Shown here: piece by piece, positions 1-19,496 of the stretch | How the letters are laid out: each line of letters starts with the position of its first letter | Position numbering within the stretch: position 1 is the first letter of the stretch | DNA from: a virus | Lineage: Duplodnaviria > Heunggongvirae > Uroviricota > Caudoviricetes | Virus record (IMG/VR): IMGVR_UViG_2671181134_000003 | Length of the DNA stretch: 19,496 nucleotides | Reading direction: 5' to 3' (one strand) | Notes under the pieces: model-generated | The model's input: only the letters and a program-made list of their open reading frames with translations | The model's database searches: none | What the model was told of the DNA's origin: nothing | Program-made: the position numbers and the translations under genes

Positions 1-779
1 ACGAACTGGTTGTTAAAGGGATAAATATTTACCCGGATAAGATTACTGTTACTGTGGCGCTGGAAACTGGTGGGTATACGTCACTGTTGTTGCCAAATGT
101 GGTGATTGATCTTGATCGTGTTGAAGGTGCCCCGCTGGAGTTTTACGAAGCTGAGGCGAAAAAGAAGGCGAAGCAGTTTTTCATGGATATTGCTGCCGGG
201 TTATGTGAAGGGAACGAACCGTTGCCGGAAAAGCGCCTTTGTTCAGAAGAGCGGTATACCATACAAATTAACAATGCATATAACACGATACAGTCAGAAA
301 AAGATGATATCGAATCACGCATTGAAAAACTGGAGAACAGCGTCGTTGAACTGAATAAAAAACTGTCGGTGCAGATCCCTTCCGAAGGTGAAAAAAAACG
401 CCGTGATGAGCAGTTCGCGGCGTTTTACGATTATTGCCGGAAAGTGATGAGCAGAAATCTCGCAGAGTGTTTCCGTATTCAAAAAAACAGAGAGCGCTCT
501 GCAAATAGTGAAATTCTGGATAATTTTTTAAAGGGGACGCATCTCGCCAGTGATTGTTTCATTGCTCATTCTTTTGGTGGCTTTCATGAGGCCATCAAAC
601 ATGATGTTGAGAGAAGTCCAGGTATCCTCTGTTCCATTCCCGTAAGCATCGAAATAGACACAAATACGATAACCGGTGAACTCGTTACTGCCGGAGTCGG
701 TATATTCCGTCATGAGGGGAACGATGCCAAAGGTTCCTTTACAAAAATCGGGCCGTTCTTTCTGAAGGTAGAGCGATAG
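1..779 (+). CDS. hypothetical protein, C-terminal part (reading frame open from window start; 5' end outside window)
   Basis: Frame 3 has no stop from nt 3 to TAG 777-779 (about 258 codons). Codon usage looks genuine (CTG/GAA/AAA preferred). No Shine-Dalgarno before the first GTG at 54, consistent with the start lying upstream of the window. Overlaps the 3' end of the convergent - strand ORF by about 250 nt, so one of the two may be a shadow ORF. No family recognised. Confidence 0.45.
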   Translation, partial: ELVVKGINIYPDKITVTVALETGGYTSLLLPNVVIDLDRVEGAPLEFYEAEAKKKAKQFFMDIAAGLCEGNEPLPEKRLCSEERYTIQINNAYNTIQSEKDDIESRIEKLENSVVELNKKLSVQIPSEGEKKRRDEQFAAFYDYCRKVMSRNLAECFRIQKNRERSANSEILDNFLKGTHLASDCFIAHSFGGFHEAIKHDVERSPGILCSIPVSIEIDTNTITGELVTAGVGIFRHEGNDAKGSFTKIGPFFLKVER

Positions 780-1160
780 TTTGTTAAGTACCCATCCGAC
801 AGCTCGCTCATTTTGGTTTATTTTCGTATCGCGAAACAAAAATTCGAAGCGGCCAGATGACGCATGGGTGCAACCAAATACCGGGGCGTATTCATCAACC
901 TTTGGTGTTCCTGAAAACATGCAGTCCGTGCTCTCGAATGCAGATGAATTGCTGTTGATCCACTTAACAAAAGAAAAAAAGGTCTGAATCGCTTGTCTGT
1001 CTGAATATTCAACAAAATCCTCAAGGTGTGTCTCGATCAGTTCCGGGTGTTTACGAAAGTCATAATATTGACCGGGACGATATTTATGAGTGGTTGTTTT
1101 ATCCCATGGTTGTGCTCTGCGTCCCTGTAAACGGAGGTCTGCCGCTGGATAGATAAGCAT
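528..1160 (-). CDS. hypothetical protein (about 210 aa), opposite strand to the phage late genes
   Basis: ATG at 1160-1158 is preceded by AGGAG (complement of 1168-1172) with a 7-nt spacer; stop TAA is the complement of 528-530. It is a long ORF in AT-rich DNA. The ORF-track start at 1229 is rejected in favour of the SD-supported ATG. No family recognised. Confidence 0.5.
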   Translation of the reverse strand: MLIYPAADLRLQGRRAQPWDKTTTHKYRPGQYYDFRKHPELIETHLEDFVEYSDRQAIQTFFSFVKWINSNSSAFESTDCMFSGTPKVDEYAPVFGCTHASSGRFEFLFRDTKINQNERAVGWVLNKLSLYLQKERPDFCKGTFGIVPLMTEYTDSGSNEFTGYRICVYFDAYGNGTEDTWTSLNIMFDGLMKATKRMSNETITGEMRPL

Positions 1161-1290
1161 AAGTAATCTCCTGGTGGAATGTAATCCACGATCATCCGGG
1201 GAAATTAAGAACCCGCCAGTGCCCACCACTGGTGGGGTGAAGGCTTAACATATCCAGGGATTCGGAACCGATAAATCCTGATAAATATCC

Positions 1291-1824
1291 ATGAACACCA
1301 AAATCAAATACGGCCTGTCGGCTGCCGTTCTGGCGCTGATTGCCGCAGGGGCGCCTGCGCCTGATATTCTCGACCAGTTTCTGGATGAAAAAGAAGGTAA
1401 CCACACCACGGCATACCGTGATGGTGCGGGGATCTGGACCATTTGTCGTGGTGCCACCAGGGTGGATGGCAAACCTGTCGTCCCGGGCATGAAGTTGTCG
1501 AAGAAAAAATGCGACCAGGTTAACGCCATTGAGCGTGATAAGGCGCTGGCATGGGTGGAGAAAAACATCCGGGTGCCACTGACTGAACCCCAGAAAGCGG
1601 GGATCGCGTCATTCTGCCCGTATAACATTGGCCCCGGTAAGTGTTTCCCGTCGACGTTTTATAAACGAATTAATGCAGGCGATCGCAGGGGAGCGTGTGA
1701 AGCGATTCGCTGGTGGATTAAGGACGGTGGCAGAGACTGCCGTATCCGCTCAAACAACTGTTACGGCCAGATATCCCGTCGTGACCAGGAGAGCGCGCTG
1801 GCGTGCTGGGGAATCGACAGATAA
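1291..1824 (+). CDS. R: phage endolysin, lysozyme-like (GH24) with SAR-type signal-anchor N-terminus
   Basis: 177-aa ORF. N-terminal weakly hydrophobic Gly/Ala-rich segment (GLSAAVLALIAAGAPAP) is typical of a SAR domain. E-x8-D-x5-T catalytic spacing (EGNHTTAYRDGAGIWT) matches T4/P21-type lysozymes. Position is immediately upstream of the spanins. Confidence 0.9.
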   Translation: MNTKIKYGLSAAVLALIAAGAPAPDILDQFLDEKEGNHTTAYRDGAGIWTICRGATRVDGKPVVPGMKLSKKKCDQVNAIERDKALAWVEKNIRVPLTEPQKAGIASFCPYNIGPGKCFPSTFYKRINAGDRRGACEAIRWWIKDGGRDCRIRSNNCYGQISRRDQESALACWGIDR

Positions 1825-3345: not shown

Positions 3346-3822
3346 ATGGACGGCGAGCTGAAAAATATGAAGTTAAATATTAATCAACTGGCAGCCCTTT
3401 CAGGTCTGCACCGGCAGACTGTTGCCGCCAGAATGGCGGATGTTCCTCTTGCACCAGGCAGTAATGAAAAGAAAAAACTGTATCTCCTGACGGATTTGAT
3501 TATTTCGTTGCTGGAAAAACCACCGACTTCCGAAGATGAAGAGATGAACCCACATGATCGGAAGGCATGGTATCAGTCCGAGCGCGAGCGTCTTAAATTT
3601 CAGCATGAAACTGTTCAGCTTGTGCCTGTCAGTGATGTCAGGCGGTCCTTTTCTGTCGTGGTGAAAGCGATAGTTCAGGTACTGGAAACCTGGCCTGACC
3701 GGCTGGAAAGGGACAGAGGGTGGACCGCATCACAACTGAATGAAGTACAGATTGTGGTTGATGAGATCCGCGACACACTGGAAAAGGCAGTCATTGACTG
3801 TTGTGATGAGGCCGATATGTGA
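3346..3822 (+). CDS. Nu1: terminase small subunit (Nu1-like, N-terminal HTH)
   Basis: SD GGAGGG (3334-3339) with a 6-nt spacer before ATG 3346. N-terminus (KLNINQLAALSGLHRQTVAARMADVPL) resembles lambda Nu1 (MEVNKKQLADIFGASIRTIQNWQ...). Sits immediately upstream of terL with a start/stop overlap. Confidence 0.8.
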   Translation: MDGELKNMKLNINQLAALSGLHRQTVAARMADVPLAPGSNEKKKLYLLTDLIISLLEKPPTSEDEEMNPHDRKAWYQSERERLKFQHETVQLVPVSDVRRSFSVVVKAIVQVLETWPDRLERDRGWTASQLNEVQIVVDEIRDTLEKAVIDCCDEADM

Positions 3823-17940: not shown

Positions 17941-17944
17941 AAAG

Positions 17945-17981
17945 AATAAAAAAAATCCCGCAGAGTTGCGGAGCTGCGGGA
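17945..17981 (-). terminator. intrinsic terminator on the - strand
   Basis: 8-bp GC-rich stem TCCCGCAG (17956-17963) / CTGCGGGA (17974-17981) with a 10-nt loop. On the - strand it is followed by eight U (complement of the A-run at 17948-17955). It is not a terminator on the + strand. Confidence 0.65.
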
Positions 17982-18049
17982 GATTCAGACAAATGAAGAT
18001 TAGTGTTAAGGAGTTGTTTTTTTATGTCACGGCAAAAAAACACTAACGC
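17948..18049 (-). ncRNA. candidate small RNA (about 100 nt), antisense to the SD and start of the 31-codon ORF
   Basis: Bounded by the predicted - strand promoter (TSS about 18049) and the - strand intrinsic terminator (3' end about 17948). It covers the SD and start codon (18007-18026) of the + strand small ORF in antisense. No homology to a named sRNA recognised. Confidence 0.35.
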
Positions 18050-18119
18050 AGCGAAATTATACGCGCCACAGTCAGTTTGTGAAAATGTGAAGATATTCAG
18101 AATTTTTATTCAGTCATGA
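18024..18119 (+). CDS. small ORF (31 aa) between tail genes I and J
   Basis: TAAGGAG at 18007-18013, 10 nt upstream of ATG 18024. Stop TGA 18117-18119 lies immediately before the + strand terminator. Peptide MSRQKNTNAAKLYAPQSVCENVKIFRIFIQS is not hydrophobic. Very short, so protein-coding status is uncertain. Confidence 0.25.
   Translation: MSRQKNTNAAKLYAPQSVCENVKIFRIFIQS
18056..18083 (-). promoter_or_regulatory. sigma70-like promoter on the - strand (-35 TTCACA, 16-bp spacer, -10 TATAAT)
   Basis: Complement of 18078-18083 is TTCACA (5/6 match to TTGACA); complement of 18056-18061 is TATAAT (6/6); spacer is 16 nt. Transcription would run leftwards into the - strand terminator. Confidence 0.45.
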
Positions 18120-18120
18120 T

Positions 18121-18152
18121 ACAGGCATCCTCCGGGGTGCCTGTTGTTTTTT
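18121..18152 (+). terminator. intrinsic terminator on the + strand between I and J
   Basis: Stem ACAGGCA (18121-18127) / TGCCTGT (18138-18144), extendable to about 10 bp with a 4-nt loop, followed by TGTTTTTT (18145-18152). Confidence 0.6.
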
Positions 18153-18195
18153 GGGCATAAACAGATTCAGACATCAGACAGGAGAGGGGGACAGA

Positions 18196-19496
18196 GTGGG
18201 TAAAGGGGGCGGCAAGGGGCACACACCGCGTGAGGCGAAGGATAATCTCAAATCCACGCAGATGATGAGTGTGATTGATGCCATTGGTGAGGGACCGGTG
18301 GAAGGTCCGGTGAAGGGACTGCAGAGTATTCTGGTGAACAAAACCCCGCTTACGGACACGGACGGTAATCCCGTGATACACGGTGTGACCGCCGTCTGGC
18401 GTGCCGGGGAGCAGGAGCAGACACCGCCGGAAGGCTTTGAGTCCTCCGGGGCGGAAACCGCACTGGGCGTGGAGGTGACGAAGGCAAAGCCGGTGACGCG
18501 CACCATCACGTCAGCGAACATTGACCGTCTGCGGGTGACCTTCGGGGTGCAGTCACTGGTGGAGACCACCTCAAAGGGTGACCGTAACCCGACGTCTGTC
18601 CGCCTGCTGATTCAGCTTGAGCGTGGTGGTAAATGGATGACGGAAAAGGATGTCACCATTAACGGCAAGACCACCTCGCAGTTCCTGGCGTCGGTGATTC
18701 TGGATAATCTCCCTGAGCGCCCCTTTAACATCCGGATGGTCAGGGAGACGGCGGACAGCACCACGGACCAGCTGCAGAACAGAACGCTGTGGTCGTCATA
18801 CACCGAAATCATCGATGTGAAACAGTGCTACCCGAACACGGCGATTGTGGGGCTGCAGGTGGATGCGGAGCAGTTCGGTGGCCAGCAGCTGACGGTGAAC
18901 TACCATATCCGTGGTCGCATCATCCAGGTGCCGTCAAACTATGACCCGGAAAAACGCACCTACAGCGGTATCTGGGACGGGAGTCTGAAACCGGCATACA
19001 GCAATAACCCGGCCTGGTGTCTGTGGGACATGCTGACTCACCCGCGCTACGGCATGGGAAAACGTCTGGGGGCGGCGGATGTGGACAAGTGGGCGCTGTA
19101 TGCCATCGGGCAGTACTGCGACCAGACGGTCCCGGATGGTTTCGGGGGCACAGAGCCGCGGATGACCTTTAATGCGTACCTGGCACAACAGCGTAAGGCG
19201 TGGGACGTTCTCAGTGATTTCTGCTCGGCGATGCGCTGTATGCCGGTATGGAACGGCCAGACGCTGACGTTCGTTCAGGACCGCCCGTCTGATGTGGTGT
19301 GGCCGTACACCAACAGCGATGTGGTGGTGGATGATAACGGCGTGGGGTTCCGCTACAGCTTCAGTGCCCTGAAGGACCGGCACACGGCGGTGGAGGTGAA
19401 TTACACCGACCCGCAGAACGGCTGGCAGACCTCCACGGAACTGGTGGAAGACCCGGAAGCCATACTGCGCTACGGACGCAACCTGCTGAAGATGGA
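18196..19496 (+). CDS. J: tail tip / host-specificity protein J (lambda gpJ-like), 5' part; continues beyond window end
   Basis: GTG 18196 preceded by GGAGAGGGGG (18181-18190). Translation GKGGGKGHTPREAKDNLKSTQMMSVIDAIGEGPVEGPVKGLQSIL...CYPNTAIVGLQVDAEQFG...IWDGSLKPAYSNNPAWCLWDMLTHPRYGMGKRLGAADVDKWALY matches the lambda gpJ N-terminal region. No stop before the window end (about 433 codons present). Confidence 0.95.
   Translation, partial: MGKGGGKGHTPREAKDNLKSTQMMSVIDAIGEGPVEGPVKGLQSILVNKTPLTDTDGNPVIHGVTAVWRAGEQEQTPPEGFESSGAETALGVEVTKAKPVTRTITSANIDRLRVTFGVQSLVETTSKGDRNPTSVRLLIQLERGGKWMTEKDVTINGKTTSQFLASVILDNLPERPFNIRMVRETADSTTDQLQNRTLWSSYTEIIDVKQCYPNTAIVGLQVDAEQFGGQQLTVNYHIRGRIIQVPSNYDPEKRTYSGIWDGSLKPAYSNNPAWCLWDMLTHPRYGMGKRLGAADVDKWALYAIGQYCDQTVPDGFGGTEPRMTFNAYLAQQRKAWDVLSDFCSAMRCMPVWNGQTLTFVQDRPSDVVWPYTNSDVVVDDNGVGFRYSFSALKDRHTAVEVNYTDPQNGWQTSTELVEDPEAILRYGRNLLKM

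Follow-up and report, generated by a model that had tools for sequence, protein, structure and literature searches.

An antisense gene of a widespread, uncharacterised family and its shadow reading frame between the holin and endolysin genes of an Escherichia coli prophage

Introduction

When two long open reading frames (ORFs) run towards each other and overlap, which of them is a gene? We studied this question at the start of the IMG/VR virus record IMGVR_UViG_2671181134_000003, a Caudoviricetes sequence of 19,496 nucleotides whose full length is called the window below. Here a + strand frame is open from the window start to a stop codon at 777-779, and a - strand frame of 210 codons, which we name X210, runs in the opposite direction from 1160 to 528. 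A sequence-only reading of the region had described these two convergent ORFs, a near-ideal AGGAG-N7-ATG start for the - strand frame and an overlap of about 250 nt, and had left the choice between a genuinely overlapping pair and a pair in which one ORF is a shadow. Both frames and the start signal are read in the sequence as described, and the overlap measures 252 nt (528-779).

Here, we show that X210 is a real gene, one of a widespread family that has not been characterised, that its cassette is mobile, and that the + strand tail opposite to it is a shadow. Within the overlap, selection thus acts on the coding sequence of X210 alone. The best overall explanation, which we consider probable, is that the 3' end of a YdfR gene was replaced by a moron cassette in which X210 lies antisense to the late genes.

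Results

X210 is a genuine gene of a widespread family

A word-indexed search identified full-length homologues of X210, 210-219 residues long, in Salmonella and other prophages. These are 65, 64, 53 and 53% identical to X210, align without internal gaps and leave 82 invariant positions. Further, AAGGA-type sites are kept in the homologues at the position equivalent to the Shine-Dalgarno sequence of X210. Substitutions in the - strand frame are by far most frequent at the third codon position, followed by the first and then the second, and this is true for the whole gene as well as for the overlap; between the window and Salmonella the numbers are 58, 34 and 119 for positions 1, 2 and 3. The dN (nonsynonymous divergence) values are 0.2-0.45, and dS (synonymous divergence), which is saturated in most pairs, is about 1.6-2.3 where it can be computed, giving a dN/dS of about 0.1-0.2 for the whole gene. 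An alternative GTG start at 1229 was also considered and rejected, because the homologues begin at the equivalent of the ATG at 1160.

The family extends far beyond these close relatives. In a profile search against 1.8 billion representatives, 252 clusters are found at E <= 1e-3 and 183 at E <= 1e-10; nearly all of them are 200-215 residues long and align from end to end. In an alignment of 30 sequences that reaches down to 21% identity, seven residues are invariant (P39, E47, D48, E76, D79, R110 and G174), and R15, P18, W19, Y32, N69, G103, R104 and N115 are nearly so. The conserved acidic pairs and arginines among them (E47, D48, E76, D79, R110) suggest, from their conservation, a catalytic or ligand-binding site. 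A cysteine protease, proposed from an ESTDC...H motif, was dropped because C80 and H99 vary in distant members.

The product of X210 is a soluble protein of 24.4 kDa with an isoelectric point of 5.8. It has no signal peptide and no transmembrane or hydrophobic segment (maximum KD19 hydropathy 0.46), and thus does not resemble a small membrane protein of the holin type. An AlphaFold2 model based on the 30 sequences (pLDDT 88, pTM 0.86) predicts an alpha/beta fold: an antiparallel sheet of four to five strands, with long helices packed against one face and with residues 2-5 paired as a strand.

Neither X210 nor 105 diverse family members match any family in Pfam, PHROGs, PADLOC or NCBIfam. Searches of the PDB by sequence, using the single sequence and two profiles, gave no match for X210, and a Foldseek comparison of the model with BFVD gave only matches of low TM (template modelling) score, to uncharacterised jumbo-phage proteins. 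The literature search found nothing on X210. The sequence-only reading had called the - strand product unrecognisable, and this description stands; the + strand ORF does belong to a known family (see below).

The + strand tail is the shadow of X210

In coding DNA, stop codons of the in-register antisense frame arise only from the sense codons TTA, CTA and TCA, and shadow ORFs are therefore a general feature of genes. The two frames studied here are in exact codon register over the whole overlap; the TAA stop of X210, for instance, is the complement of a TTA codon on the + strand. In the window, the last X210 codon of the three types is the CTA of the invariant Leu128. As none follows in the last 83 codons, the opposite strand stays open. 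The coordinates of these and the other features are listed in Table 1.

Table 1. Features at the start of the window. Positions refer to the whole stretch of 19,496 nt.
Feature	Position	Strand	Details
YdfR-family (DUF1327) late gene body	1..484	+	in identical genomes, follows the holin directly and begins 13 nt before window position 1
Read-through tail of the + strand ORF	485..779	+	not homologous to YdfR relatives; antisense to X210 in codon register from 528 on
Terminator-like hairpin with T7 run	480..502 (hairpin 502->487, T7 486->480)	-	6-bp stem (pattern scan)
X210 (633 nt, 210 aa)	528..1160	-	ATG 1160-1158, stop 530-528; real gene of the island
T7 homopolymer in X210 (A7 on the + strand)	974..980	-	adjoins GG at 981-982
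Shine-Dalgarno AGGAG	1168..1172 (CTCCT on the + strand)	-	7 nt before the ATG at 1160
Conserved block upstream of X210	1244..1285	-	TATCAGGAT (1283->1275), N22, TATGTT (1252->1247)
SAR (signal-arrest-release)-type endolysin (Phage_lysozyme)	1291..1824	+	PF00959, 1.5e-24; N-terminal signal-anchor; right flank of the cassette

Could the overlapping genes both be real, the extended + strand protein of 263 residues being a functional fusion whose tail is under selection? Nearly all E. coli copies keep the + strand frame open to 779, even a variant that has lost the DUF1327 part by an in-frame deletion, and with no stop before 779 the tail is translated whenever the late gene is. However, the E. 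coli copies are too alike to reveal an independent constraint, and the more distant copies speak against it. The same 83-codon antisense opening is found in two homologues (L010 and L011) that lie between tail genes and have no YdfR gene upstream, and in two Salmonella homologues the stretch is broken by stop codons. Within the overlap, dN/dS is 0.09-0.36 for the X210 frame. For the antisense frame it is 0.6-0.7 where computable, about twice the values of about 0.26-0.36 that the X210 frame has there. In addition, the tail matches no YdfR-family or PHROG profile. A functional fusion is thus very improbable.

Purifying selection and conservation in the overlap are seen in the - strand frame only, and not in both frames. 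The suggestion that one ORF is a shadow therefore proved right for the last 252 nt of the + strand ORF, and the alternative of a genuinely overlapping pair falls. The tail will be translated, as part of the 263-residue product, when the late operon is on; nothing indicates selection on its 98 residues. What distinguishes this case from shadow ORFs in general is that a real gene upstream leads into the shadow frame without a stop, so that the two together look like one protein of 263 residues and are sometimes annotated as such.

The + strand ORF is a YdfR/DUF1327 gene with a truncation

The upstream part of the + strand ORF is readily recognised. Residues 1-91 of the window translation form a DUF1327 domain (Pfam PF07041, E-value 8.1e-31; 106.5 bits against a gathering cut-off of 25), and this is followed by a coiled-coil-like stretch ending in '...RNLAECF'. 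PHROG 2091 and 1085 match the ORF as well, over residues 1-163/166 only. The ORF is a YdfR/DUF1327 gene with a truncation, a late gene of the type that usually occupies the interval between the holin gene S and the endolysin gene R in thousands of E. coli prophages. It is accordingly not unknown cargo, as had been proposed for both ORFs.

Where the family resemblance ends can be seen from the relatives. In these, the + strand gene either reaches a family-type C-terminus some 20 residues further on or carries on into a different domain of about 130 residues, and the window ORF has neither. The resulting proteins have 169 or 297-329 residues, and their genes diverge from the window sequence at 437 or 484. 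The phage PhiR12_1 (L004) represents the short form, with a + strand gene of 169 codons, and shares positions 1-437 and 1215-2000 with the window; in two matching E. coli genomes the gene runs about 130 residues further, to a 297- or 329-residue protein that fills the whole S-R gap. In total 749 E. coli genomes match the segment 420-540 of the window. In most of them the match stops at 484, and in 133, which are the carriers of the cassette, it covers at least 80% of the segment. The NCBI pipeline PGAP labels the + strand gene of the window type 'incomplete, missing C-terminus', an incomplete pseudogene.

YdfR/DUF1327 (PF07041) is the gene located between essQ and rrrQ in the Qin prophage of E. 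coli K-12. The ORF of the window resembles K-12 YdfR in its complete DUF1327 domain and in its position between holin and endolysin. It differs in being a longer, mosaic form with the coiled-coil stretch added, and in that its own C-terminal part is replaced by 98 unrelated residues encoded by the cassette.

For K-12 YdfR it is reported that residues 1-72 bind the catalytic half of RNase E and that the protein may bind RNA (PMC13232886). As the N-terminal DUF1327 domain is intact here, the N-terminal domain of the + strand gene may, by analogy, still work. The literature search also found the term 'DUF1327' in an unrelated genome paper.

In one Shiga toxin (Stx) phage, the Stx2a phage Stx2_14040 (L003, 2948-3433), nearly the whole DUF1327 domain is gone by an in-frame deletion, and a protein of 161 residues is annotated. 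The region corresponding to window positions from about -12 to 346 is replaced by 53 nt, homology resumes at 347, and the + strand frame is still open to the stop at 779.

The island lies between the holin and the endolysin

Positions 1-1290 of the window are the interval between a P21-type pinholin, located just upstream of the window, and the SAR endolysin of a lambdoid, Stx-phage-like E. coli prophage. Prophages of many E. coli genomes, and Stx1a-converting phages, match the region at 99.8% identity or more. In the identical genomes the holin, a class II holin of the P21 S type (PF04971, 1.6e-31), ends 16 nt before the first position of the window. The holin is therefore not missing, and the island sits between S and R, not in the place of S as the sequence-only reading had it. 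Comparison with related prophages, which that reading had proposed as a test of insertion, gives a more complex picture: S does not directly precede R there either, since a YdfR-type gene stands between them, and it is the cassette that is present or absent beyond 437 or 484.

The G+C content is 44.0% in the YdfR part (1-484), 44.9% in X210 (528-1160) and 54-59% in the endolysin, terminase and structural genes. The contrast noted earlier is thus real, and smaller than the spot counts of about 40% against 55-63% had indicated. Further, the low G+C is common to the whole holin-endolysin interval, including the + strand gene, and is not peculiar to X210, so it does not set the - strand gene apart.

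A mobile cassette with possibly exchangeable cargo

The cassette extends from about 485 to 1285 (about 800 bp) and comprises the terminator-like hairpin, X210 with its AGGAG-N7-ATG start, and the conserved upstream block. Its left junction, 484/485, lies beside the hairpin: the hairpin and its T7 run are located 25 nt 3' of the X210 stop and exactly at this junction. At the other end, the upstream block recurs with the same motifs, the same spacing and a similar distance to the start codon in homologues that lie between the tail genes I and J and share 53% protein identity with X210. By a manual count from the aligned sequences, the block is about 72% identical to these over about 40 nt. As it is conserved across slots, the cassette extends almost to the start codon of the endolysin.

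The upstream block is a candidate promoter/operator. A consensus scan upstream of X210 found no sigma-70 promoter, so promoter activity is only inferred, and Rfam has no RNA family in the region. In the two tail-slot copies L010 and L011, a perfect inverted repeat, CTGAT-N5-ATCAG, overlaps the TATCAGGAT motif and is operator-like; the window copy has one half only.

The cargo behind this block seems to vary. In PhiR12_1 the S-R slot has 303 bp where the window has 777 bp, and on its - strand (3445-3705) a different ORF, of 86 codons, stands behind the same upstream block and overlaps the end of the + strand gene by about 50 nt. The same block with a different ORF suggests, from the sequence comparison, that cargo is exchanged behind a shared upstream region. 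The depositor's label 'DUF1823' for the 86-residue ORF was not reproduced by Pfam at E <= 0.01.

Among 5426 complete E. coli genomes, 133 carry X210, with 200 copies in all and up to four in a genome, all at least 99% identical. The carriers are mostly Shiga toxin-producing E. coli (STEC) of many serogroups, including the main ones (O157, O145, O26, O103, O111, O91 and O113), from cattle and human sources. Only eight of 50,697 deposited phage genomes have the gene, and all eight are Stx1a or Stx2a phages. No copy turned up in two scans of species-representative genomes.

Several observations show that the cassette is mobile. Homologous flanks occur both with it and without it, as PhiR12_1 and most of the 749 genomes share the + strand gene and then differ. 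Between two phage lineages, X210 has one substitution in its 633 nt, against 11 in 57 nt (370-426) of the + strand gene, which indicates recent lateral spread. At least three slots are occupied by X210 or its homologues: the S-R interval (21 loci), the tail I-J interval (15 loci) and, in a P22-like Salmonella prophage, the site immediately in front of the holin. The tail slot copies, from 15 IMG/VR prophages, are 50-55% identical to X210 and lie between lambda-like tail genes. In every prophage context the gene is antisense to the late genes. The earlier view of the - strand ORF as horizontally mobile, moron-like cargo opposed to the late operon is borne out by these several slots and nearly identical copies.

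In the window itself the tail slot is empty; between tail genes I and J there is a non-coding gap of 256 nt (17941-18196) with a GC-rich hairpin (about 17950-17985).

Neighbouring genes

The N-terminus of the endolysin is MNTKIKYGLSAAVLALIAAGAPAP. It is followed, in order, by two tiny membrane ORFs, Rz with an embedded Rz1, and the terminase. Directly 3' of the endolysin, within the late operon, there is a strong hairpin resembling an intrinsic terminator (1915-1947, a 15-bp stem with a T run). The two very small ORFs between this hairpin and Rz, 1981-2163 (60 residues) and 2178-2309 (43 residues), have hydrophobic stretches and match no Pfam family.

Rz is located at 2306-2779 (PF03245, 1.3e-48), and an out-of-frame ORF nested in it (2532-2717) is, judged by position alone, the expected Rz1. 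This ordinary nested spanin arrangement is a true overlapping pair, in contrast to the false pair at 528-779.

Discussion

How did the apparent overlap arise? We propose that an autonomous cassette of about 800 bp, facing the opposite way, took the place of the 3' end of a late-strand YdfR/DUF1327 gene from about nt 485 onwards. The YdfR stop codon would have been lost in this way, so that the frame runs on across the hairpin sequence and continues, in codon register, antisense to X210. As this frame happens to be free of stops for 83 codons, an apparent overlap of 252 nt results. In the lysogen, a promoter of its own would drive X210, as with lambda bor and other morons; convergent late transcription would silence it after induction, and it would presumably benefit the lysogen.

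The concept of the moron reportedly goes back to Hendrix and colleagues. Like the lambdoid morons lambda bor and HK97 gp15, X210 is one gene that brings its own translation signals and ends in a terminator-like site; it is present or absent between homologous late genes, is oriented against or independently of the late operon, and is mobile. It is unlike them in that its product has no relative of known function and its promoter is only a candidate, that its insertion destroyed the 3' end of the neighbour instead of being cleanly intergenic, and that its G+C equals that of the flank. We conclude that X210 is a prophage moron whose product belongs to a family without any characterised member. 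That it is expressed in lysogeny is the reading we prefer, as an inference that the layout supports.

Several observations weigh against this picture. The hairpin is weak (-9.9 kcal/mol for a stretch of 61 nt, z = -1.2), the sigma-70 consensus is missing, and the G+C of X210 (44.9%) equals that of the adjoining YdfR part (44.0%). Three of 25 close copies of X210 are frameshifted by a deletion of one nucleotide; two of them (L034 and L035) have lost an A of the A7 run, and the third (L014) the neighbouring G at 981. Truncated proteins with 113-122 residues are also found in databases. The deletions could be due to sequencing error, decay or slippage. With respect to a role in defence, X210 has no match in PADLOC-DB 2.0, where 105 family members gave three matches at chance level (E about 0.008), and its distant relatives (21-33% identity) are singletons among ordinary chromosomal genes or beside a transposase, with no shared partner and outside defence islands.

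What X210 does for its host can be discussed from this context. Expressed from the prophage, it might by itself protect against other phages, as an anti-phage defence or superinfection-exclusion protein. The moron layout, with the gene antisense in hot spots of the late region, and the recent spread among STEC prophages fit such a role, and so does the P22-like Salmonella prophage (L008), where Kiwa (KwaA/KwaB), likewise antisense, is found at a distance of about 3 kb from the X210 homologue. Against it, besides the missing database match and the solitary distant relatives, X210 has no nuclease, NTPase, TIR, SIR2 or membrane domain. We therefore regard a role in defence as possible and still rather doubtful. 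In the same Salmonella prophage, the region from the antiterminator Q to the holin (L008, 8001-13257) contains X210, Kiwa and several ORFs without a family, and has the look of a hot spot for cargo or defence genes.

Alternatively, the main effect of the cassette could come from its antisense transcription rather than its protein, which would keep leaky lysis-gene expression low in the lysogen. The cassette is without exception antisense to the late genes, here it lies inside the S-R lysis cassette, and in PhiR12_1 the same upstream block precedes a different small - strand ORF. However, there is no lysis gene to regulate in the tail slot, and the strong purifying selection across 25-65% identity, together with the length kept at about 210 residues, indicates that the protein itself is selected. 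An RNA-only role is very improbable.

Many cargo genes of enterohaemorrhagic E. coli (EHEC) and Salmonella prophages encode secreted virulence factors such as type III effectors, and the enrichment of X210 in STEC prophages, as well as one Salmonella copy in a prophage remnant near sodC, would be in line with such a function. Yet the first 50 residues hold seven invariant or nearly invariant positions (R15, P18, W19, Y32, P39, E47 and D48) and a strand at residues 2-5, which is not a disordered secretion signal; the protein has neither signal peptide nor transmembrane segment, and the family is also found in environmental metagenome contigs among metabolic and housekeeping genes. Of the readings considered, a secreted effector is the least credible.

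If a single role had to be named for X210, it would, tentatively, be phage protection, with the effector and the purely antisense-RNA roles less likely. More broadly, we would offer as a speculation that X210 is the founding member of a new family of prophage effectors that act as single proteins. It would be an enzyme whose fold has no counterpart among solved structures, encoded antisense within late regions of Stx prophages and others of the lambdoid or P22-like type. It would give lysogens phage resistance or another fitness trait, and genome annotation would have overlooked it systematically because a shadow-extended ORF and a pseudogene call cover it.

Most complete genomes in RefSeq have nothing annotated under X210, and in deposited Stx phage records the + strand ORF is annotated instead, so that in some deposited phage genomes the wrong strand is annotated. 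The exact X210 protein is present in a handful of GenBank assemblies as a 'hypothetical protein', mostly as fragments at contig ends. Being absent from most RefSeq annotations, X210 is missed by surveys of pangenomes, virulence and defence.

In general, this locus demonstrates how convincing a false overlapping gene can be when a recombination junction meets an antisense frame in codon register. Further, the holin-endolysin and the tail I-J intervals emerge as exchange slots for antisense cargo, and the X210 family, with at least 250 clusters of proteins of about 210 residues, no Pfam entry and no structural relative, is a clean target for functional study.
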